Shown one piece after another: positions 3,259-29,177 of a DNA stretch of 39,415 bases. The translations under genes were made by a program, and so were the position numbers. The stretch lies in the IMG/VR virus record IMGVR_UViG_2778261630_000006, positions 1 through 39,415 of that record; one strand, 5' to 3'. The notes under the pieces were generated by a model, which worked only from the letters and a program-made list of their open reading frames with translations, searched no databases and was not told where the DNA came from. This stretch comes from a virus. Taxonomy: Duplodnaviria; Heunggongvirae; Uroviricota; Caudoviricetes. How positions within the stretch are numbered: position 1 is the first letter of the stretch; the number at the start of each line of letters is the position of its first letter.

Positions 3259-4137
3259 TCAGTAGTTATGTACTGAAGGAGGTAATTCTTTATTCTTAAG
3301 TCTCATCCATGCGGAAAGATTCGTTGGTCCGTCTGGCTCATTGATATCAACATCTCGTGTGTGATTGATTAAAACGTCTCTCGCCATTCCGATAACATAC
3401 GAGAATTCATGACCGTAGTCGTAGCATCTGCCGGAATAGTTCGATTGAATTTGTTTTAATGCCGGATACAATTCGCGGAATAATGCCTGTGAACGGTTGG
3501 CATAATCCCATAGCCATACAAGGCTGTTTGCTTCTTTTGCAGAAAGCTCGTTGGTTTTCTTATCTTGTTTGCCAATGAACTCACCTTCAAGCACTACCCT
3601 GTGGATGTACTCTACGGCCAGCGGGATTTGTTCAATTGAAAGTTCATCAATGCTGTCAATACCAAAACGCTGATGAACCATATTGTATGCATCGTCATAG
3701 CGAAGTCCTTTCTTTCCTACCAGCATGTTTACTGCATCGCGTAGCGGTGTTCTTTCCTCAACAGTGGTTTTCTTGCCTTTCACATACTTGCCATGTTTGC
3801 GAATTGAAGGCAGAACTTCTGCTGTTACCCACTTGCGGAATTTGTGCGGGACTGAACCTTTATTGACGGCATCGCGGCAGCGCAGAACCAATGTATACAT
3901 ACCTGACTCGCTCACAATGCTTAGATTCTGCTCACCACCAAGGGTGTAACTTAAAGTTACTCCCTTTTCATCGTCATCAAGTGCAGTAAGCGCCTTGCGT
4001 GAGTTAGTCAAAGCTAAAGCATCACAAACATCTTTAGCTACAAACCACGGCTCGCCGCACTTGTTAATTACGCGGATTTCACTGTCGCCAAATTTGAAGA
4101 TGGTGAAATCGTTTTGTGCCTTTGCTATACTTTTCAT
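3259..4137 (-). CDS. ant: Antirepressor Ant
   Basis: Position after arc as in P22 immI; recognisable antirepressor sequence. Start at internal ATG 4135-4137 with AGGAAAT ribosome-binding site. Confidence 0.85.
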
Positions 4138-4383: not shown

Positions 4384-4400
4384 GGGTCCACGGTGGACCT
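4384..4400. promoter_or_regulatory. Mnt operator (Omnt)
   Basis: Near-perfect dyad GGGTCCACGGTGGACCT in the arc-mnt divergent region, matching the P22 mnt operator as recalled. Confidence 0.65.
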
Positions 4401-4409
4401 ATTGAGAAT

Positions 4410-4430
4410 ATAGTAGAGTGCTTCTATCAT
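4410..4430. promoter_or_regulatory. Arc operator (Oarc) overlapping Pant
   Basis: ATAGTAGAGTGCTTCTATCAT matches the P22 arc operator as recalled. Confidence 0.65.
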
Positions 4431-4457
4431 GTCAATACACTAACTTGGAGTGATGGC

Positions 4458-4712
4458 ATGGCTAGAGATGATCCGCACTTTAACTTCCGCATGCCTTTGG
4501 AAGTAAGAGAAAAATTAAAATACAGAGCAGAGTCAAACGGTAGATCAATGAACTCAGAATTGTTGCAAATCGTCCAAGATGCTCTATCGAGACCATCTCC
4601 TGTAAAAGGTTATCGCAATGAAGCTGAACGATTAGCCGAGATGCAGGCTGAACAGTTCAAGTCTGTGGTATTTGAGACACTTAAAAACATGTATGGCAAG
4701 GATGCAAAATGA
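4458..4712 (+). CDS. mnt: Mnt repressor (ribbon-helix-helix)
   Basis: Translation MARDDPHFNFRMPLEVREKLKYRAESNGRSMNSELLQIVQDAL... matches P22 Mnt. Confidence 0.9.
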   Translation: MARDDPHFNFRMPLEVREKLKYRAESNGRSMNSELLQIVQDALSRPSPVKGYRNEAERLAEMQAEQFKSVVFETLKNMYGKDAK

Positions 4713-21060: not shown

Positions 21061-21498
21061 TTATTTCAGGCATTGCGTCCTGATGTATTCCTGCAGGTAG
21101 TTAACCTGCGCGGTTATCTTGTCGATTCCACTTCGGAGACGGTAATAATTGAGTTCAGCATCTGCTGTAAGTCTTGGGCTTTCTCCATCGCCCATGCCGC
21201 TGGCTCCGGTCTTTGACTTTGCACAGGAGGCGGCGACTTGCAGCCGCTTACGCCCAGCAGAAACATCATCACGGAGACTTTCGATAGTCGCGTTAGCATC
21301 AGCAAGCTCCTTTGTATATCTGGCATCGAGTTCTGCTACATCACGTTGACGCTTCTGCATATCAGCGATGATGGATGTGGCTTTATCGCGCTGGTCTTTG
21401 TAGGCGATGGCGTTATCACGGTAATGATTAACAGCCCATGACAGGCAGACGATGATGCAGATAACCAGAGCGGAGATAATCGCGGTGACTCTGCTCAT
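21061..21498 (-). CDS. Rz: Spanin inner-membrane subunit Rz
   Basis: [31 protein letters not shown]... matches lambda Rz. Confidence 0.9.
21114..21299 (-). CDS. Rz1: Spanin outer-membrane lipoprotein Rz1, embedded in Rz in another frame
   Basis: Embedded ORF with signal-like segment and lipobox (LLGVSGC) followed by a Pro-rich stretch. Start ambiguous (21299 or 21269). Confidence 0.65.
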
Positions 21499-21971
21499 AC
21501 CTCAATCTCTCTGACCGTTCCGCCCGCTTCTTTGAATTTTGCAATCAGGCTGTCAGCCTTATGCTCGAACTGACCATAACCAGCGCCCGGCAGTGAAGCC
21601 CAGATATTGCTGCAACGGTCGATTGCCTGACGGATATCACCGCGATCAATCATCGGTAAAGCGCCACGCTCTTTAATCTGCTGCAGAGCTACAGCGTCCT
21701 GGCTTTCTGGAGAAAAATCTTTCAGGCCAAGCTGTTTACGGTAAGCATCCCACCAGCGTAAAAGAAGCTGGTAACGTCCGGCGGCTGTTGATTTGAGTTT
21801 GGGGTTTAGCGTGACAAGTTTGCGAGGGTGATCGGAGTAATCAGTGAATAGCTCTCCGCCAACAATGACGTCATAACCATGATTTCTGGTTTTCTGTCGT
21901 CCGTTATCAGTTCCCTCTGACCACGCCAGCATATCGAGGAACGCCTTACGTTGATTATTGATTTCCACCAT
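21495..21971 (-). CDS. R: Endolysin R (lytic transglycosylase)
   Basis: Translation nearly identical to lambda R as recalled. Confidence 0.95.
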
Positions 21972-22278
21972 CTTCTACTCCGGCTTTTTTAGCAGCGAAG
22001 CGTTTGATAAGCGAACCAATCGAGTCAGTACCGATGTAGCCGATGAACACGCTCGTTATATAAGCGAGATTGCTACTTAGTCCGGCGAAGTCGAGAAGGT
22101 CACGAATGAACCAGGCGATAATGGCGCACATCGTTGCGTCGATTACTGTTTTTGTAAACGCACCGCCATTATATCTGCCGCGAAGGTACGCCATTGCAAA
22201 CGCAAGGATTGCCCCGATGCCTTGTTCCTTTGCCGCGAGAATGGCGGCTAACAGGTCATGTTTTTCTGGCATCTTCAT
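21955..22278 (-). CDS. S: Holin S (class I, dual-start MKM)
   Basis: Translation matches lambda S107/S105, including the Met-Lys-Met dual start. Confidence 0.95.
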
Positions 22279-22575: not shown

Positions 22576-22604
22576 CAAAAAGCCCCGAGCTATTAACTCA
22601 GGGC
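22576..22604 (-). terminator. Late-operon terminator tR' (Q antitermination target)
   Basis: GCCCUGAG-loop-CUCGGGGC hairpin followed by UUUUU on the minus-strand transcript, about 30 bp downstream of the putative pR' -10. Confidence 0.65.
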
Positions 22605-22640
22605 TTTATTTAACGAGTGCATTTATCCATCGTTGAGTCA

Positions 22641-22669
22641 AATTTACCCAACTTTATTCAAAAAGTCAA
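22641..22669 (-). promoter_or_regulatory. Late promoter pR' with Q-binding region
   Basis: Minus-strand TTGACT, 17-bp spacer, TAAATT, immediately downstream of Q, as in lambda. Confidence 0.55.
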
Positions 22670-22711: not shown

Positions 22712-23335
22712 CTAACGTGTGACCGCATTCAAAATGTTGTCTGCGATTGACTCTTCTTTGTGGCATTGCACCACCAGAGCGTCATACAGCGGCTTAACAG
22801 TGCGTGACCAGGTGGGTTGGGTAAGGTTTGGGATTAGCATCGTTACAGCGCGATATGCGGCGCTTGCTGGCATTCTTGAATAGCCGACACCTTTGCATCT
22901 TCCGCACTCTTTCTCAACAACTCTCCCCCACTGCTCCGTTTTGGCTATATCAACAGCACGGCCTGTACCGTGGCAATCTCTGCATCTTGCACCCGGCGTC
23001 GCGGCACTACGGCAATAATCCGCATAAGCGAATGTTGCGAGAACTTGCAGTACCTTTGCCTTAGTATTTCCTTCGAGCTTTGCCACACCACGGTATTTCC
23101 CCGATACCTTGTGTGCAAATTGCATCAGATAGTTGATAGCCTTTTGTTTGTCGTTCTGGCTGAGTTCATGCTTACCACAGAATGCAGCCATTCCGAATCC
23201 GGCTTGTGATTGCGCCATCCCCATAGCAGCCATCACATCAGTACCGGAAAGAGAGTCAGAAGCCGTGGCCCGTGGTGAGTCACTCATCATCGGGCTTTTT
23301 GGCGAATGAAATTTGGCTACGCTTTCGAGTCTCAT
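22712..23335 (-). CDS. Q: Late antiterminator Q
   Basis: 207 aa; translation essentially matches lambda Q as recalled. Confidence 0.95.
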   Translation of the reverse strand: MRLESVAKFHSPKSPMMSDSPRATASDSLSGTDVMAAMGMAQSQAGFGMAAFCGKHELSQNDKQKAINYLMQFAHKVSGKYRGVAKLEGNTKAKVLQVLATFAYADYCRSAATPGARCRDCHGTGRAVDIAKTEQWGRVVEKECGRCKGVGYSRMPASAAYRAVTMLIPNLTQPTWSRTVKPLYDALVVQCHKEESIADNILNAVTR

Positions 23336-23520
23336 CGTCTTCCCTTTTTGCCTGGCGTGACCATCAGGACGCCGTTAACGATTACGTGACGCTCACCTTT
23401 GCTGTCTCGGTTGTACTTGAGCACTGTTCCTCTTGCGCAGGAAAGCATCCTCGCCACTTCGGTCTGATTGCCTCGTGTCTGGATAAGAAGCTCTGGTATC
23501 GTTTGAATTGTGGCGTTCAT
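23332..23520 (-). CDS. ninH: NinH-like small DNA-binding protein
   Basis: 62 aa, stop overlaps the Q start; resembles lambda NinH. Confidence 0.65.
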   Translation of the reverse strand: MNATIQTIPELLIQTRGNQTEVARMLSCARGTVLKYNRDSKGERHVIVNGVLMVTPGKKGRR

Positions 23521-23879
23521 ACGTTCTCCAGTTCGGTGATTTTTATTCCAAGCCGTCCGCCTGGTACTTTCACGCCACGAATTACGCGAATGTCATCGAA
23601 TTGCTCGTCGTCTTCCGCAAATCCGGCGTGGATAAGGGAGTCGAGTAAACCTTTCAGGATGTTGTCGAGGTCGCGGCGGCGGGAGTCTGGAACGTCTGCG
23701 ATGACTTTGATGCGGAGTCGTGATTTGGTGAAAATATCTAACTTGAGTTGGCGGATGATTTGCTGGACGTCTTTTCGGTATTTCTGGCCTTTATCGCTGA
23801 TGTAGTATTGGCTTCCCCGTCTTCGCCAGTAGGTATTCACCGACGGCGGGTAAGGAAGCACAAACTGATATTCGTTCAT
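23517..23879 (-). CDS. rusA: RusA-family Holliday junction resolvase
   Basis: 120 aa with PDSRRRDLDN catalytic-region motif. Confidence 0.85.
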   Translation of the reverse strand: MNEYQFVLPYPPSVNTYWRRRGSQYYISDKGQKYRKDVQQIIRQLKLDIFTKSRLRIKVIADVPDSRRRDLDNILKGLLDSLIHAGFAEDDEQFDDIRVIRGVKVPGGRLGIKITELENV

Positions 23880-24166
23880 GGCTTAATCTTCCCCTCCTTC
23901 AGCAGTATCGCCTGCGTCCTGATCACGCCTTCGAGGTGGTAAAGTCTGGCGTCTTTGTTGTCGAGGTTATGGGTGCGTCTGTCGATTTCATCGTGACACG
24001 CGCTACAAGCCCATGCGCCGATAAGGTCGTCAGGCTTCATTCCCGTTCCGCAAATTCCAGCCATCCGGTAATGTGCCAGAACTGTAGTTTCAGGATTACC
24101 ATTGCATACGCCGTAAATACGTACCTGGCATTCTCTGCCGCGTGCTTCTTTGCGTAGGTTAGCCAT
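23876..24166 (-). CDS. DUF1364-type (YbcO/NinX-like) Cys-rich protein
   Basis: 96 aa with spaced Cys/His residues, at the nin position upstream of rusA. Confidence 0.6.
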   Translation of the reverse strand: MANLRKEARGRECQVRIYGVCNGNPETTVLAHYRMAGICGTGMKPDDLIGAWACSACHDEIDRRTHNLDNKDARLYHLEGVIRTQAILLKEGKIKP

Positions 24167-24551
24167 GACGTCTTCCCCATTTCTCTTGGCATCTCCTCAA
24201 CCACACTCGCATATTTTGGCTGGTAATATCGGTATGCTCTCCGCTGTATTCCTTTTGTGAGTGCTTGCATCTCACATAAACAAATACGGCAAGCAATGGA
24301 TATGCGAATAACAAAATAAATAACAGGGCTGTAGCAACAGATACTTTCACAAAAAATGCAGGCAACTCTCTGACCTGATAGTCTGGAAAATCCAAGAATT
24401 CATCTATTATGTTGTTAGCAACATTGGTAGTTGCAATACATGCGACTGACAGACAATCAAAATAATTAAAGTCATATCCAGCCGCAGCAGCCCATGTTGG
24501 ATTGTCTTGAAAATGTTTAAACGTTATTTGTCCGTATCGGCTAATCACCAT
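24159..24551 (-). CDS. Hypothetical protein with a predicted membrane segment; AT-rich nin-region insert
   Basis: 130-codon ORF, 5' half AT-rich; hydrophobic stretch ALLFILLFAYPLLAVFVYV. Overlaps neighbours at both ends. Confidence 0.5.
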   Translation of the reverse strand: MVISRYGQITFKHFQDNPTWAAAAGYDFNYFDCLSVACIATTNVANNIIDEFLDFPDYQVRELPAFFVKVSVATALLFILLFAYPLLAVFVYVRCKHSQKEYSGEHTDITSQNMRVWLRRCQEKWGRRHG

Positions 24552-24720
24552 CGTCTTCTTCCTCGTACATTGAGCTATTCGGATCGCTCATCAGTTCTGC
24601 GCAGCAGTGCTCACACACGTGAACTTCCAGCGCATGCAGCTTCTGACCGCAGTTAGCGCACGTTAAAGCCCGCTCGACGCTTTCTTTCTGGTATTGAATG
24701 GATTGGGATGGGCTAAGCAT
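24541..24720 (-). CDS. ninF: NinF-like zinc-ribbon protein
   Basis: 59 aa, MLSPSQSIQYQKESVERALTCANCGQKLHALEVHVCEHCC..., not in the ORF track (under 60 aa). Confidence 0.7.
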   Translation of the reverse strand: MLSPSQSIQYQKESVERALTCANCGQKLHALEVHVCEHCCAELMSDPNSSMYEEEDDGD

Positions 24721-25111
24721 TATTGGCGTCCTGCATCATGAGAAAGACAATCATGGCGGCGCGGAGATGCGATTCGCCGCAGAAGCAGTAGCCAGGAATA
24801 TTTTCCCATTCCCAACAACCTTCCTCTAAGTCACCTTCTGACCATGCGCACCATTCTTTTTCCGCTGTCATCCACATAGTGCTAATTTTGTTTTCAGTGA
24901 TGATCGGATATGCGTCTGCTGGGTTTGCGCATGGGTTAAAGGATCCGCGCTCAACTTGTACTTCAACTGCGTCTCCGTTTACAATGTCTCCCTCAAATGA
25001 GACAAACACCATATCGCCATTCTCACCTTCTTTGTAATCCGGTGATCCGTTATGAATGGCTTCGAATACTGCCACGTTAATTTCAAAATCACTTAACTGT
25101 GAATAATCCAT
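24713..25111 (-). CDS. YbcN-like (DUF2591) protein
   Basis: About 132 aa, acidic and Trp/Cys-rich, following ninE. Family assignment from memory. Confidence 0.5.
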   Translation of the reverse strand: MDYSQLSDFEINVAVFEAIHNGSPDYKEGENGDMVFVSFEGDIVNGDAVEVQVERGSFNPCANPADAYPIITENKISTMWMTAEKEWCAWSEGDLEEGCWEWENIPGYCFCGESHLRAAMIVFLMMQDANNA

Positions 25112-25113
25112 TG

Positions 25114-25290
25114 TTATTTCCTCGCACGATGTCTTAGCCACCGGATATCCCACAGGTGAGCCGTGTAGTTGAAGGTTTTTACGTCAGATTCTTTTGGGAT
25201 TGTCTTGCGTTTATTTCTGGAGCGCTTCGTTGGAAGGTATTTGCAGTTTTCGCAGATGATGTCGGTGATACTTCGTCGCTGTCGTCTCAT
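25114..25290 (-). CDS. ninE: NinE
   Basis: [58 protein letters not shown] matches lambda NinE. Confidence 0.85.
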
Positions 25291-25814
25291 GCCGCCCTCC
25301 TGACGCCCTGCCCGATCGCCATCAATGCCGCTTTGGATACGGTAGTAAACATCCGTCGAGGACTGATGAACGGTCGCCAAATCAGCAGCATGGAGCCTTT
25401 GCTGTTTCCCTTCTTCTCCAGCCCTGTCGATGGTTCGATAAAATTAATCCGTCCATCAGTGATGATGCGAACTTCGTCAATACTCTCCAGAGCCTTGCTG
25501 AACCATCCGACAGACATATCCTCTGGCACAAGCATCACTACCGTCTGTCGCTGTTGTATGCACTGCTCAGCGGCTTTTTCCACCCACGGCCTGATATTGC
25601 TGTACGGTGGGTTATTCCAGATTGCACCGTGGCTTATCCACTCAGAATTGAGTGCGTCGTCGGCCTCAGTTAGCCAGTGAGCGCACAGAGCATTTTTGTC
25701 GCTCGCAGCTGAATCCAGCCAGAATCCAAACTCAATATCCAGCGCATCAAAAAGCCAAAGCGGCGTTTGCCAGCAGTCCTTGTCGTGTGCTGGCGTATTT
25801 GATTTGATAGTCAT
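25287..25814 (-). CDS. Phage-type DNA N6-adenine methyltransferase
   Basis: NPPY motif (IWNNPPYSN), about 175 aa, ATGA-coupled to ninB and ninE. Confidence 0.8.
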
Positions 25815-26251
25815 GCAGCCCGATCTCCCCATCGCGCTTTCCACTCCAGAGCCAGTCGCGCTTCGTCTGACCACTTAACGCCACGCTCTGTACCGAATGC
25901 CTGTATAAGCTCTAATAGCTCCGCAAATTCGCTTACACGCATTCTGCTGGTTGACTGGCCTATTACCACAAAGCCATTCCCGGCAAGGTTAGGAACAACG
26001 TCCTGCTGCTTTAATGCTGCTGTAAAAACGCACTTCCAGCTTTCTGCATCCAGCCAGCGACCATGCCATTCAACCTGACGAGAGACGTCACCAAGGCAAG
26101 CCCAAAGCTTTCGATTCTGGTCTAAGCTGCGGTTGCGTTCCTGAATGGTTACTACGATTGGTTTGGTTGGGTCTGGAAGAATTTGCTGTACCGCGTGAAT
26201 AGCGTTTTGCTGATGTGCTGGAGATCGAATTTCAAAGGTTAGTTTTTTCAT
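25811..26251 (-). CDS. ninB: NinB (recombination mediator)
   Basis: MKKLTFEIRSPAHQQNAIHAVQQILPDPTKPIVVTIQERNRSLDQNRKLW matches lambda NinB. Confidence 0.9.
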   Translation of the reverse strand: MKKLTFEIRSPAHQQNAIHAVQQILPDPTKPIVVTIQERNRSLDQNRKLWACLGDVSRQVEWHGRWLDAESWKCVFTAALKQQDVVPNLAGNGFVVIGQSTSRMRVSEFAELLELIQAFGTERGVKWSDEARLALEWKARWGDRAA

Positions 26252-26269: not shown

Positions 26270-26299
26270 ATAAAAAGGCCTGCGATTACCAGCAGGCCT
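26270..26299 (-). terminator. Rho-independent terminator between replication genes and nin region
   Basis: AGGCCTGC-loop-GCAGGCCT 8-bp stem followed by UUUUUAUUU on the minus strand. Confidence 0.65.
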
Positions 26300-26328: not shown

Positions 26329-28209
26329 TTAATACTCCGTCACGTTTTCCTGTCGCCACGCCTCGTCATATTCCGATTTCGGCATATTGGCGATGTAGCT
26401 ATATGGCGATCCTGATTCAAGTTGCAGGAACTGGTGCGATTGTTCGTCAAGGAACAACGGGACACCACCTTCCCAACCTTCGCCGTTACGTTGTTTTTCA
26501 AGCATCAAAACAGATGCCGGAGATGCCAGTAGCTGTTCGTCCTTCTCTGACATCTTTTCACCACTCTGAACTCTCTGTAACGCTCTCTCGCGAGCCTTGT
26601 TACGCCAGATGATGAAAAGGTTGTCTGTCAGGTCTGTTATCGCTCCAGAGCCTTTTACGTCCATTTTCCCGGTTGGTTTTTCTTCGCTGTCTCCTTTTCG
26701 CGAGTGAGTAACGAGAATGACGTGGGAGTTTGTTTTGTTTTTGAAGTCGCAAATCGAGTCAACAAACGCCTTCTGCCCGTTATAGTCATCGTCGCCTATG
26801 CCACATTTCATCAGGCTGTCGATGATGAATAACTGGATCCCGTATCGGCGGCGAGCGTAGTCGAATATTTCGATCAGCCTGTCGGCTTTCGCCGTTCCGG
26901 TCAGGCCAAACACCCAAAGTCTTTCGTCATAAAATTTAAATGCAGAGTCAATTTCCAGCACTGGCGGCATCTTGCAGCACGTCGCCTGACGGGTAAGGCG
27001 CTTAAGGAGAATACCAGGCTTCAGCTCAAGTGACGCGATGCACGTCTTCACACCCTGACGCATTGCCTCAAGTGCCATATGCCCGACAACCTCCGTTTTT
27101 CCGTGACCGTTCACACCATTGACCAGCGTCAACTCTGCCTCACGGAACTGGAATTTATCTGCCAGAGATTCCCACGGTGGATTAAACAGATACTGCTGCT
27201 TGCCGTAGAAAGCGTTGATAGTGTCCTGGTAAAACTCTCGCGCACTGTAGAGTTCTTCAGGATCGAAGTAGGATGCCGTGCCGATGTACTGCCAGATTTC
27301 ATCCTCGGTAACACCGTTCATCAGGCATTCGTTGATGTCTTTGTACGGCAGAGTAACAAGACGGCAACGATGTTCACCGAGTCGGCTTGCGATTTCCCTT
27401 GCGGCTTCACGACCAACATCATCAACATCCATCGAGATGAATATTTCCTCAAACCTGTCGAGGTTGTGATACTCAAACTCAATCCACTGTTGCTTAGCGC
27501 CTTTCCCGCCACCAAACGGCACGGATAACGCCGAGATGCCGTATTGCGCATAGCTCATACAATCAATTTCGCCTTCGCAAAGTACAACCGCCCTCACGCC
27601 AGCGTCCAGAGCCTGCCATCCGAACAGACAAGGTTCGCAATCACCTTCTGCCATAATGACTTTCTTCCCGTCCGGGCGCTCAGTGCTGATTCGCTTGACC
27701 TGCAACAACTCACCATCGCGTTTGTACGGAATCACCAGAGCATCCAGTTCCCGCTCTCCATTCCACACCTTGCCGCTGACAACCTCGTAGCGCTTTACGA
27801 TTTCTGGCGATATGCCACGCGATTGCAGGTACTCAAGATGGGATTCTGTTCTGGTAACGTAGCGGGCGATTTTCTTGCGATCAGGTCTGGAGAATTTCTT
27901 CTCACGTTTGGCATCGAAATGGTGATCGTCATCCTTGATACCGAGAAATGCTTTCGCTTCCTGCATAGCCTGATGCAGGTTAATTCCTCGACATGCCATC
28001 CACAAATCAAGCATGTCACCGCCGTCTCCCTCAGCGAAATCAGCCCATTTTTTCTTGCCGCTAAGGTTGACCTTAAGGCTGTTTCCCTTGTCACCGTTAA
28101 CGTTACCGGCAACCCACTCATGCCCCTCTTTCTTGCCGTTTGGCAACAGGTGCGGAGCCACCCTGTCAACCTGCGCCCAAAGCAGGTCGCTGAGTTCACT
28201 TGGCGTCAT
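26329..28209 (-). CDS. Primase/helicase (TOPRIM domain plus DnaB-like ATPase)
   Basis: Toprim acidic cluster (LCEGEIDCMS), Walker A GVNGHGKTE, Walker B LFIIDSLMK. Confidence 0.8.
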   Translation of the reverse strand: MTPSELSDLLWAQVDRVAPHLLPNGKKEGHEWVAGNVNGDKGNSLKVNLSGKKKWADFAEGDGGDMLDLWMACRGINLHQAMQEAKAFLGIKDDDHHFDAKREKKFSRPDRKKIARYVTRTESHLEYLQSRGISPEIVKRYEVVSGKVWNGERELDALVIPYKRDGELLQVKRISTERPDGKKVIMAEGDCEPCLFGWQALDAGVRAVVLCEGEIDCMSYAQYGISALSVPFGGGKGAKQQWIEFEYHNLDRFEEIFISMDVDDVGREAAREIASRLGEHRCRLVTLPYKDINECLMNGVTEDEIWQYIGTASYFDPEELYSAREFYQDTINAFYGKQQYLFNPPWESLADKFQFREAELTLVNGVNGHGKTEVVGHMALEAMRQGVKTCIASLELKPGILLKRLTRQATCCKMPPVLEIDSAFKFYDERLWVFGLTGTAKADRLIEIFDYARRRYGIQLFIIDSLMKCGIGDDDYNGQKAFVDSICDFKNKTNSHVILVTHSRKGDSEEKPTGKMDVKGSGAITDLTDNLFIIWRNKARERALQRVQSGEKMSEKDEQLLASPASVLMLEKQRNGEGWEGGVPLFLDEQSHQFLQLESGSPYSYIANMPKSEYDEAWRQENVTEY

Positions 28210-28316: not shown

Positions 28317-29177
28317 TCACCTGTCGAAAAACACGTAGCCAGTTTTCGATACGGTGATTGCAGATGATGGTTTGGATTGTGGTTGAATAGTTTCTGGCTT
28401 CTCGTCGTTCCAGCGTTGACCGTTCAGGTAGCTCGATGGTAACAACCTGTCGAATCCGAACTGCTTACCATTCCTGCATGCGATGTCTTCTGCCAGCATC
28501 GTGGCAAACTCGCTTGCCGTACCCATGGTAGTTTTACGCCATTCCCTGAACTGTGTTCTGAATGCCGAAGCTGCGTTTTTCTTCCCGGCTTTCCGCATGC
28601 CTGCACACCAGAATATTTCCTCGAATGCCTTGTCGGTTTCTTCGTGACGGTCAGGTGATTTTTCACACTCCGTCCGAACACTTTCGGACATAGTGTTTTT
28701 ATTATTTCTTTTTTCTTTTGTAATAGTTTCTTTTGTGTGTCCCTGTTTTGGTGACAGCGCTGTCACCGTTTTGGTGACACTTTTTGTCACCAATGCAGTG
28801 ACATTATCACCAGAGTAGTGACACCCTTCGATTTGCCATTCTTCGATGTTCTTGTTAGGACCGATTTGCTGGCCTTCGCGAAGGATAACCTTCATCGCGA
28901 TAAGCTCATTCTTGGCCTTGTTTACCTTCTGTCTTGGCAGCCTGGTAATTTGAGCTAACTGACTATCAGAGATGCGATCCATCTTTTTACCGTAGCCGTA
29001 TGTTTTACGGCATATAGCGTGGGCAACCTTGCTCTGATTTTTCGTTAAATCTGCGCCGATAAGCTCTTCATACAGGGCATTTGCAAGACGGGTATAACCA
29101 TCTTCAACTTCTGCCACACGACGCTCCACAGGCCGTTGTGAAGGCCTTAAATGTGTTACGGTTGCAAGATTACTCAT
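28317..29177 (-). CDS. Replication initiator (lambda O-like N-terminal domain)
   Basis: N-terminal [14 protein letters not shown]...[33 protein letters not shown] resembles lambda O; iterons lie inside the linker. Confidence 0.8.
28690..28830. repeat. Candidate origin of replication: four dyad iterons plus adjacent AT-rich tract, inside the initiator gene
   Basis: GGTGACAGCGCTGTCACC, GGTGACAC-TTTTTGTCACC, AGTGACATTATCACC and AGTGACACC spaced about 20-24 bp apart (28750-28826), then an AT-rich tract (28690-28740). Confidence 0.6.

Follow-up and report, generated by a model that had tools for sequence, protein, structure and literature searches.

The window, by which we mean the whole stretch of 39,415 nucleotides of viral DNA that we analysed, carries on its minus strand the gene order NinB, Dam-family N6-adenine methyltransferase, NinE, NinX, NinF, an open reading frame (ORF) of 130 amino acids, YbcO/DUF1364, RusA, NinH and Q. 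We took the identities and the order of these genes from Pfam, PHROGs and NCBIfam, and we adjusted their starts to the PGAP calls in L001, an E. coli prophage which is 98.6% identical (Table 1). This is the order that the first-pass annotation had given, with one name to be corrected: the gene which had been called YbcN-like is NinX (PF10765), whereas YbcN of DLP12 is a protein of the Orf/NinB family (PMC4118853).

Table 1. Coordinates of the genes, boundaries and signals of the nin block, in the order of the window.
Feature	Position	Strand	Evidence
Q antiterminator, end of the delayed-early operon	22712..23335	-	PF03589 E 1.3e-57
ninH	23332..23520	-	PF06322 E 5.3e-23
rusA, Holliday-junction resolvase	23517..23879	-	PF05866 E 1.1e-16; phrog_34 E 6e-54
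ybcO/DUF1364, 96 aa, putative nuclease	23876..24166	-	PF07102 E 1.8e-44
Right cassette boundary ATGGCTAA, ybcO start codon overlapping the TAA of the 130-aa ORF	24159..24166	-	junction alignment
130-aa ORF, PHROG 2638 member, predicted single-pass membrane protein	24159..24551	-	phrog_2638 E 4.7e-55
Predicted single transmembrane helix VSVATALLFILLFAYPLLAVFVYV, codons 70-93, followed by the basic stretch RCKHSQK	24273..24344	-	Kyte-Doolittle peak 2.6
Conserved N-terminal motif TFKHFxDxPxWAAAAGYDFNYxDCxS, codons 9-35	24447..24527	-	invariant in 10-sequence alignment
ninF, 59 aa, zinc-ribbon-like	24541..24720	-	PF05810 E 4.6e-12; phrog_672 E 5.2e-37
Left cassette boundary GAGGAAGAAGACGATG, Shine-Dalgarno sequence and ATG within the ninF 3' end	24549..24564	-	identity across cargos ends a few bases past the ATG
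ninX/DUF2591, 132 aa	24713..25111	-	PF10765 E 2.5e-14; phrog_444 E 5.8e-42; PGAP 'phage protein NinX family'
ninE, 58 aa	25114..25290	-	PF05322 E 4.9e-42; start as in L001
Dam-family N6-adenine DNA methyltransferase, 175 aa	25287..25814	-	PF05869 E 2.7e-64; TIGR01712
ninB, Orf-family recombination mediator, first nin gene	25811..26251	-	PF05772 E 1.3e-54; L001 PGAP start, ATG confirmed
Intrinsic-terminator-like hairpin upstream of ninB, tR2 position	26276..26299	-	consensus match only

All these genes lie on one strand between the replication genes, which are found upstream (an O-like gene at 28317-29177 and a primase-helicase gene at 26329-28209), and Q, which closes the block at its other end. 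Overlapping stop and start codons chain the genes at every junction, and no transcription signal was seen inside the block; the position which belongs to ninG is held here by YbcO and RusA. Close packing of genes whose stop and start codons overlap is an established feature of nin regions (PMC8022706). In lambda the nin genes are dispensable for plaque formation (PMC10695390). Within the rightward operon the block would be the delayed-early part.

The methyltransferase gene occupies the position of ninC/ninD of lambda, in agreement with the first reading, which had placed it at ninC, and its ATG overlaps the ninB stop. Its translation exceeds the cut-offs of the phage Dam family (216 bits against 28.1 for PF05869, 263.6 bits against 97.05 for TIGR01712) and contains the catalytic (D/N)PP(Y/F) motif in the form WNNPPYSN (NPPY), while PADLOC classes it as 'orphan methyltransferase'. 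The predicted product of 25287-25814 is a phage Dam-family adenine methyltransferase, whose putative target would be the adenine of GATC. At least 240 phage records, among them mEp043, SfI, Sf101, HK140 and many Stx phages, have the ninB-dam-ninE junction at full length with 95-99% identity, and a RefSeq E. coli prophage is annotated with the whole gene order of the window, the 130-aa ORF included. The description of this nin region as non-canonical goes too far in view of these records. The region is a standard mosaic variant, already catalogued, of the nin block, a non-essential part of lambdoid/P22-like E. coli prophages, and the Dam-family methyltransferase for ninC/ninD and YbcO plus RusA for ninG are both common, previously annotated alternatives. 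Such an architecture is textbook mosaicism and has little weight for phage biology overall.

The ORF of 130 amino acids overlaps both its neighbours, as had been noticed: its ATG overlaps the ninF stop by 11 nt, and its TAA lies within the first ybcO codons (an overlap of 8 nt at ATGGCTAA). The AT-richness which had been attributed to this insert is also there, with a GC content of 0.399 and a GC3 of 0.366, under those of all nine neighbour genes (GC 0.45-0.52, GC3 0.44-0.585). This may be due in part to the amino-acid composition of a membrane protein, beside a foreign origin. The GC content of the homologues is likewise, in most contexts, under that of their flanks.

An odd base composition, together with the lack of any Pfam or NCBIfam family, is what one would expect of a spurious frame in a non-coding AT-rich spacer, or of a remnant of foreign DNA. 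However, every close copy examined is full length (130 aa) and its substitutions are mostly synonymous, which answers the first-pass suggestion that absence or frame disruption in related prophages would tell against a real gene. The ORF is intact in L001, L002 and L003, PGAP annotates the identical CDS, and dN/dS between the window and a relative is 0.04-0.15 (it reaches 0.20-0.43 among the relatives' own pairs, which have only 5-9 differences each). The identical protein is found on 374 public contigs, and its cluster counts 151 sequence variants, of which the 15 listed all have 130 aa. The Buttiauxella copy still shares 57% of its protein sequence with the window although the synonymous sites are saturated (pS 0.81, pN 0.28), and an invariant motif of 27 residues is common to homologues down to about 20% identity. 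Moreover a PHROG family exists, which the protein matches at full length (residues 9-127 against profile positions 2-120 of 120), and no competing ORF was seen over this one on either strand. The full-length PHROG match, the intact relatives and the mostly synonymous changes mean that the ORF is a genuine protein-coding gene; the pattern of conservation already refutes the idea of a spurious frame, to which we leave next to no probability.

Several genes can fill, as alternative cargos of gene size, the junction of ninF with the resolvase module, and this gene is one of them. Also seen there are ORFs of 70 and 89 aa and a Roi-like protein of 240 aa, and cargo other than the 130-aa ORF occupies the slot in 683R2, SPN9CC and HK629. 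The 3' end of ninF, which is invariant across five aligned phages and prophages bearing different cargo, supplies a Shine-Dalgarno sequence and an ATG to whichever cargo comes next; on the other side, the octamer ATGGCTAA begins ybcO here and ninG in ST131 prophages, where the 130-aa ORF adjoins an intact ninG. The cargo would be swapped by recombination at these sharp gene-boundary sequences, the left end being the Shine-Dalgarno sequence and ATG in ninF, common to every cargo, and the right end the octamer. The junction illustrates cleanly how cargo the size of a gene can be exchanged at boundaries held in common. The 130-aa ORF itself occupies the slot in 35 of 5426 complete E. coli genomes (35 of the approximately 1724 which match a ninF-YbcO query), and the sole deposited phage which has it there is Klebsiella phage phiKp_30.

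The ORF had been said to sit where lambda has ninG. As a statement of position this holds, but as a substitution it does not, the ORF being an extra gene with an intact ninG alongside in the ST131 prophages. One could still suppose that it replaces lambda NinG (Rap), or that it partners the resolvase module, for instance as a membrane tether for recombination or debranching enzymes. The gene does lie at most about 1 kb upstream, often directly upstream, of YbcO/RusA/VRR_NUC or NinG in 12 of about 21 non-redundant contexts, and this linkage to resolvases persists down to 28% protein identity. However, the conserved order of nin genes can account for the linkage. Furthermore, the ORF stands next to an intact NinG in three other lineages besides the ST131 prophages, it is missing from about 98% of the prophages matching the ninF-YbcO query, and no resolvase neighbour is detectable in P1-like, Yersinia and Proteus phages; a Pfam search of its product found neither a match to PF05766 nor a nuclease-like domain. 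We regard a role as substitute for NinG or partner of the resolvases as extremely unlikely.

Downstream of the gene one finds YbcO-RusA, NinG or Roi-YbcO. We also looked for a constant partner gene and rejected the idea, as the neighbours of distant homologues vary (LexA-like, MazG-like, exonuclease and uncharacterised proteins). Adenine methyltransferases occur near PHROG 2638 genes in several contexts and are absent in the ST131 context, and we draw nothing from this recurrence.

The hairpin upstream of ninB, in the position of tR2, past which the nin genes would be expressed by N-type antitermination, is the only terminator-like signal of the minus strand upstream of the nin genes, and from 26276 to 22669 no promoter-like or terminator-like site was seen on this strand. 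The promoter scan used a simple sigma-70 consensus, and would miss an internal promoter that is weak or non-canonical and works in the lysogen. On the opposite strand a 9-of-12 promoter-like site was found at 24186-24215; this makes 2 sites when 4.9 are expected, which is no excess over chance. Rfam (E up to 1), searched for structured RNAs at the AT-rich insert and around it, gave only a spurious snoRNA match elsewhere. Since the ORF lacks its own promoter and terminator and shares bases with the genes on both sides, we infer that it would be co-transcribed and co-translated with the nin genes on the delayed-early transcript during lytic growth, and not expressed from the repressed prophage. 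Rather than an autonomous transcription unit, it appears to be an optional nin gene within the early operon.

A different picture would be that of a classical moron, that is to say an independently transcribed gene for a membrane protein which the prophage expresses and which shields the lysogen through superinfection exclusion, like P22 SieA or HK97 gp15. The ORF is AT-rich relative to its flanks, its product is a small membrane protein, and its presence in 35 of the approximately 1724 query-matching E. coli genomes is sporadic among otherwise near-identical prophages, all of which would suit a moron. On the other hand, no site resembling a promoter or a terminator flanks it on the coding strand, its start in ninF and its stop in ybcO have the geometry of translational coupling, and its homologues in virulent-type or other phages are also within early operons. 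When compared to known anti-phage defence and superinfection-exclusion systems, the protein has no match in PADLOC (E up to 0.1) and no sequence kinship to the exclusion families annotated in PHROGs or PADLOC, phrog_2638 being its only match. A prophage-expressed moron is in our opinion quite unlikely, and we keep to an optional gene of the early operon.

The remote-homology search which had been recommended for the protein led to PHROG 2638, but Pfam, NCBIfam, PADLOC (E up to 0.1) and a profile search of the family against PDB sequences gave nothing meaningful, and no fold match was found. Searching 1.84 billion proteins we obtained 45 clusters of homologues at 50% identity, all of 99-134 aa, and all 45 match PHROG 2638 and no other PHROG. 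Pfam at E up to 1 returned for these 45 members only scattered sub-threshold matches to transmembrane families (LapA_dom, ATP-synt_C), and our literature search found no mention of PHROG 2638 or of the relevant accessions. The protein of the window shares the architecture of the family, namely 100-135 aa with an N-terminal F-D-P-A-GYD-DC-S motif and a single hydrophobic helix. Conservation is concentrated in the N-terminal motif at codons 9-35, which is the best-conserved part, and in a juxtamembrane DxxVRELP; F14, P18, A21, G25, Y26, D32 and C33 are each conserved in at least 84% of the 45 clusters. The subfamily of the window differs from the rest of PHROG 2638 by an N-terminal extension of 8 residues and by the greater length of its conserved C-terminal tail (N113, W117, C120). 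A zinc site was considered and rejected: the conservation of H13, C95 and C120 does not extend beyond the close subfamily.

PHROG 2638 is a small family, restricted to phages of Enterobacterales (lambdoid prophages, P1/SJ46-like phage-plasmids, phages of Proteus, Yersinia and Morganella), and its genes lie in every case in early DNA-metabolism clusters. More than 1000 public contigs carry it, among them ST131 prophages and P1-like phage-plasmids. The plasmids among the matches listed have about 80-130 kb, which is consistent with P1/SJ46-like phage-plasmids. A location in the leading region of conjugative plasmids, which would have hinted at anti-defence, was rejected, as 239 of 257 plasmid matches are non-mobilizable.

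The Kyte-Doolittle profile of the 130-aa protein (19 residues) has one peak only, of 2.6, at residues 75-93, so that the strongly hydrophobic segment described in the first reading, unlike the other nin proteins, is well founded. In the AF2 model (pLDDT 85.7) a long helix at residues 60-101 contains the transmembrane segment. The topology prediction that had been called for gives a single transmembrane segment with a C-side flank rich in K and R: the mean number of these residues over the 45 homologues is 3.2 on the C side and 1.8 on the N side, and the C side is enriched in 30 of the 45. The net charge of the N-terminal domain is -4 in the protein of the window, -3 to -7 in its closest relatives and -2 on average in the family, while the C-terminal tail has a family mean of +3.6. 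We predict that the product is a protein which spans the inner membrane once. It would consist of three parts: an acidic N-terminal domain of about 65 residues, bearing the nearly invariant F-x-D-x-P-x-x-A-x-x-A-G-Y-D-F-N-x-x-D-C-x-S, a transmembrane helix of 24 residues containing a conserved proline, and a basic tail at the C-terminus, which would be cytoplasmic. A re-entrant hairpin was rejected in favour of a single pass, as the 9 hydrophobic residues after the conserved proline are too few. We took the topology solely from the positive-inside rule, and the product may have the reverse orientation, since an N-terminal domain of about 65 residues is not usually translocated when there is no signal peptide.

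The C-terminus which follows the one transmembrane helix is basic and highly charged, an arrangement general in holin-like proteins, and the conserved P/F/W/G positions in the helix suggest helix-helix packing. The ORF could in principle encode a factor of lysis timing (holin-, antiholin- or pinholin-like) or a small toxic membrane protein depolarising the host. Yet it lies in the early operon upstream of Q, about 1.9 kb upstream of the lambda-family holin gene (21955-22278), its product matches no holin family in Pfam or PHROGs, and the prophage already has lambda-family holin, lysozyme and spanin genes at 21061-22278. A lysis factor or depolarising toxin seems very unlikely to us.

We consider it probable, and with good confidence, that the whole locus is an ordinary mosaic nin block holding a genuine cargo gene of PHROG 2638, which would be delayed-early and would encode a predicted inner-membrane protein. 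As to mechanism, we suggest only tentatively that the 130-aa protein acts alone and stoichiometrically, binding a component of the host or of an incoming phage at the inner membrane or its periplasmic face. The binding would use the N-terminal domain and the transmembrane helix, and the role would be accessory (host takeover, exclusion or anti-defence), dispensable for plaque formation. It is a rather doubtful extension of this that PHROG 2638 forms an uncharacterised class of early single-pass membrane effectors, whose WAAAAGYDFNY-DC-S motif docks on a host component of the inner membrane or periplasm. If this were true, entry of secondary DNA would be blocked, or a membrane-bound abortive-infection effector neutralised, or a host envelope process arrested, during lytic growth; and the usual place directly upstream of the resolvase module would reflect a co-inherited functional pair, beyond synteny. 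PHROG 2638 is a compact, phage-restricted and functionally uncharacterised membrane family with a strikingly conserved motif, which makes it a cheap target for screens of toxicity, exclusion and anti-defence.

Finally we compared the locus with known systems. The lambdoid nin regions which have Dam and YbcO-RusA (mEp043, SfI, Sf101, HK140, HK97/HK629, Stx phages, the E. coli MB06231 prophage) are like that of the window in their genes, order, overlaps and position, with 95-99% nucleotide identity over ninB-dam-ninE and ninF/ybcO, but most of them differ in having other cargo, or none, between ninF and ybcO. With the morons as defined in HK97 and HK022 (extra genes of deviant GC content, each with a promoter and a terminator of its own), the ORF shares its being extra and presumably dispensable, its deviant composition and its precise insertion between two conserved genes, whereas it brings neither promoter nor terminator and overlaps the genes on both sides. 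T4 Imm and RI and SPO1 gp56 are early, small, single-pass membrane proteins of phages which bind a membrane target. No sequence or fold relationship was detected between them and the 130-aa protein; as functional analogues only, they resemble it in being small and in having one transmembrane helix, and in the early expression and non-essential role which are predicted for it.

Profile searches with Pfam, PHROGs and NCBIfam gave unambiguous identities to every gene in and around 24159-25814, all coded on the minus strand (see the table). The mechanical ORF list puts the starts of several nin-region genes too far upstream; we used those that PGAP annotates in an E. coli prophage of 98.6% identity, and then checked the start codons. 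The first-pass annotation described this stretch correctly except for one label: the gene after ninE, which it called YbcN-like, is ninX. YbcN of DLP12 is a diverged Orf/NinB-family protein (PMC4118853). The replication module is not lambda O/P, and is also present in the ST131 prophage of strain 4433.

Features of the nin region and its surroundings
Feature	Position	Strand	Evidence
Replication module: 626-aa Toprim/DnaB-like primase-helicase and O-like initiator	26329-28209 and 28317-29177	minus	
Intrinsic-terminator-like hairpin	26276-26299	minus	8-bp stem, 6 GC pairs, then T-run
NinB	25811-26251	minus	profile searches (Pfam, PHROGs, NCBIfam)
Dam-family N6-adenine methyltransferase	25287-25814	minus	profile searches; TIGR01712 (NCBIfam, 263.6 bits, cut-off 97); NPPY motif
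NinE	25114-25290	minus	profile searches (Pfam, PHROGs, NCBIfam)
NinX/DUF2591	24713-25111	minus	PF10765
NinF	24541-24720	minus	profile searches (Pfam, PHROGs, NCBIfam)
130-aa ORF	24159-24551	minus	PHROG 2638
YbcO/DUF1364	23876-24166	minus	profile searches (Pfam, PHROGs, NCBIfam)
RusA	23517-23879	minus	profile searches (Pfam, PHROGs, NCBIfam)
NinH	23332-23520	minus	profile searches (Pfam, PHROGs, NCBIfam)
Q	22712-23335	minus	profile searches (Pfam, PHROGs, NCBIfam)
Promoter-like site	22669-22641	minus	TTGACT-17-TAAATT
Strong terminator	22607-22579	minus	13-bp stem

The 130-aa ORF is a real gene, conserved and restricted to phages; that it is no gene at all is very unlikely. Its ATG, with GAGG 9 nt upstream, falls within the final codons of ninF, so that the two genes overlap by 11 nt, and its TAA lies inside the octamer ATGGCTAA, which also holds the start of ybcO (8-nt overlap). 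These overlaps had been noticed from the sequence, as had the AT-richness of the insert, and both observations hold: its GC is 0.399 and its GC3 0.366, against 0.45-0.52 and 0.44-0.585 in nine neighbouring genes. It matches PHROG 2638 (function unknown) over its full length (E 4.7e-55), and in E. coli genomes PGAP annotates this very CDS of 393 nt. The exact protein is found in 374 public contigs, and a one-residue variant typical of ST131 in at least 1000. The 90% cluster comprises 151 sequence variants; the 15 listed all have 130 aa, and the named ones among those listed are all "hypothetical protein". Compared with the copies of E. coli MB06231, ST131 strain 4433 and Klebsiella phage phiKp_30, the ORF has 4-6 synonymous and 1-3 non-synonymous changes (dN/dS 0.04-0.15); between pairs of these relatives dN/dS is 0.20-0.43, calculated from just 5-9 differences per pair. 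Against the Buttiauxella copy pN is 0.28 and pS 0.81, synonymous sites being saturated. When 1.84 billion representatives were searched exhaustively with an HMMER profile, only 45 homologue clusters came up; with fragments and low-complexity hits set aside, all measure 99-134 aa, and 45 of 45 match PHROG 2638 and virtually no other family. The first-pass annotation held that absence or a disrupted frame in close relatives would speak against a gene; in the relatives examined, the ORF is present with its frame kept.

The behaviour of this gene is that of a cassette, at a defined junction. Of 5426 complete E. coli genomes, 1724 have the ninF and ybcO flanks, and only 35 of the 5426 carry the ORF between ninF and either ybcO or ninG; in the 50,697 phage records, the only close copy is that of phiKp_30. 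The identical slot holds a 70-aa ORF in phage 683R2, an 89-aa ORF in SPN9CC and a 240-aa Roi-like protein in HK629. Its boundaries are sharp in a five-way alignment: on the left, identity spans the 3' end of ninF, Shine-Dalgarno and ATG included, and is lost a few bases on, while on the right it returns at ATGGCTAA. The ORF is thus one of a set of interchangeable cargos, each the size of a gene, that lie between ninF and the resolvase module and are exchanged via microhomologies at gene boundaries. It had been placed where lambda has ninG, but it is no substitute for ninG, since in ST131 prophages an intact ninG follows it, starting in the same octamer. At 4386-4620 of the phiKp_30 locus, the 5' end of ybcO (ATGGCTAACCTACGCAAAGA) is kept after the 130-aa gene and is followed by a Roi-like DNA-binding gene, after which ybcO stands in full; the arrangement is suggestive of a second insertion at the same junction which left a duplicated boundary behind.

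Because diverged homologues (28-57% identity) are likewise found a short way upstream of YbcO/RusA/VRR_NUC or NinG in 12 of about 21 non-redundant contexts (Buttiauxella, Dryocola, Xenorhabdus, Morganella and metagenomic contigs), the gene is best seen as a long-standing optional nin gene and not as a recent accident. This position could also be that of a partner of the resolvase module, a less likely reading. The other homologues are located in clusters of early DNA-metabolism genes, in a Yersinia phage, P1/SJ46-like phage-plasmids (257 plasmid records), Proteus and Morganella phages and Pseudocitrobacter prophages. All contexts found are phage or prophage, and all identified hosts are Enterobacterales. 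The nin genes of lambda are dispensable (PMC10695390), and we infer that the 130-aa ORF is too.

One contig of Pseudocitrobacter faecalis (NZ_QNRL01000004.1) bears two diverged PHROG 2638 paralogues (L024 and L025, 36% and 33% identical to the protein of the window) in separate prophage-like regions, one near genes for DUF2303 and an Rv2179c-like exoribonuclease, the other near genes for a D12-class adenine methyltransferase and a small terminase. In at least seven contexts (the window and homologue loci L004, L007, L010, L012, L021 and L025), though not in the ST131 prophage L002, the PHROG 2638 gene has an adenine DNA methyltransferase gene (PF05869, MT-A70 or D12 class) no more than about 3 kb away; the count may just reflect the abundance of methyltransferases in early regions. 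Although the prophage encodes its own Dam-family methyltransferase, GATC is scarce across the whole window, with 85 sites against about 152 expected from mononucleotide base composition, a crude expectation. In Yersinia phage vB_YenS-P840 (L004), the homologue ORF53 (3498-3857) is labelled "conotoxin" in GenBank, almost certainly a spurious automatic name.

On the coding strand, a consensus-level scan found no promoter-like or terminator-like site from the hairpin to the promoter-like site of the table. As the ORF has no signals of its own and overlaps its neighbours at both ends, it is probably co-transcribed with the delayed-early operon and translationally coupled, so that the protein would be made in the lytic cycle, not by the repressed lysogen. 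An exclusion moron expressed by the prophage is a less likely reading: the ORF has the deviant composition of a moron but not its transcription signals. The hairpin, between the primase-helicase gene and ninB, occupies the position of lambda tR2. Just downstream of Q, the promoter-like site is followed about 35 nt further by the strong terminator, and the whole (22579-22669) looks like a late promoter pR' with a Q-antiterminated tR'.

Alignments of 10 and of 45 homologues distinguish four regions in the protein. The N-terminal motif (residues 9-35) is very well conserved, with F14, P18, A21, G25, Y26, D32 and C33 at 84% or more, and TFKHFxDxPxWAAAAGYDFNYxDCxS is invariant in the close subfamily. 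After it come a variable amphipathic helix, a conserved juxtamembrane DxxVRELP, and one predicted 24-residue transmembrane helix with a conserved proline, ending in a basic C-terminal tail of variable length. The strongly hydrophobic segment reported earlier is indeed there, as the one strong hydropathy peak (Kyte-Doolittle 2.6, residues 75-93). AlphaFold2, given the 45-sequence alignment, models a short beta-hairpin, two short helices and helices 30-53, 60-101 and 108-129 (pLDDT 85.7, pTM 0.69). The predicted architecture is that of a single-pass membrane protein. K/R residues average 3.2 on the C-side of the transmembrane helix versus 1.8 on the N-side, and the net charge is -4 for the N-domain of the window protein (family mean -2) and +3.6 on family average for the C-tail; this distribution favours an N-out/C-in topology. 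Searches against known families, defence models, solved structures and folds turned up nothing that resembles the protein, and we found no mention of it in the papers searched.

The most likely reading, a tentative one, is a stand-alone accessory inner-membrane protein which, as the phage develops lytically, would bind some component of the host or of an incoming phage at the membrane or on its periplasmic side. The N-terminal motif and the transmembrane helix would possibly make the protein-protein contact, and the role would be in host takeover, exclusion or anti-defence. A lysis-timing factor is less likely. As a member of PHROG 2638, the ORF is a genuine "conserved hypothetical" gene whose motif is of interest and whose role is conjectural, and the residual novelty is confined to what this family might turn out to do.

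Finally we must note that the nin region, which had been called non-canonical, merely differs from lambda's own version. At least 240 deposited phage genomes, among them mEp043, SfI, Sf101, HK140 and many Stx phages, have the ninB-dam-ninE junction at full length and 95-99% identity, and the whole gene order, 130-aa ORF included, is already annotated in a RefSeq E. coli chromosome. Tight packing and overlapping stop and start codons are hallmarks of nin regions (PMC8022706). The window as a whole, whose best match is Lederbergvirus vB_EcoP-720R6 (64% coverage, 96% identity), is a P22-like/lambdoid mosaic prophage. Its nin region is an ordinary mosaic one, catalogued already, with YbcO and RusA instead of NinG as in HK97, HK629 and DLP12.
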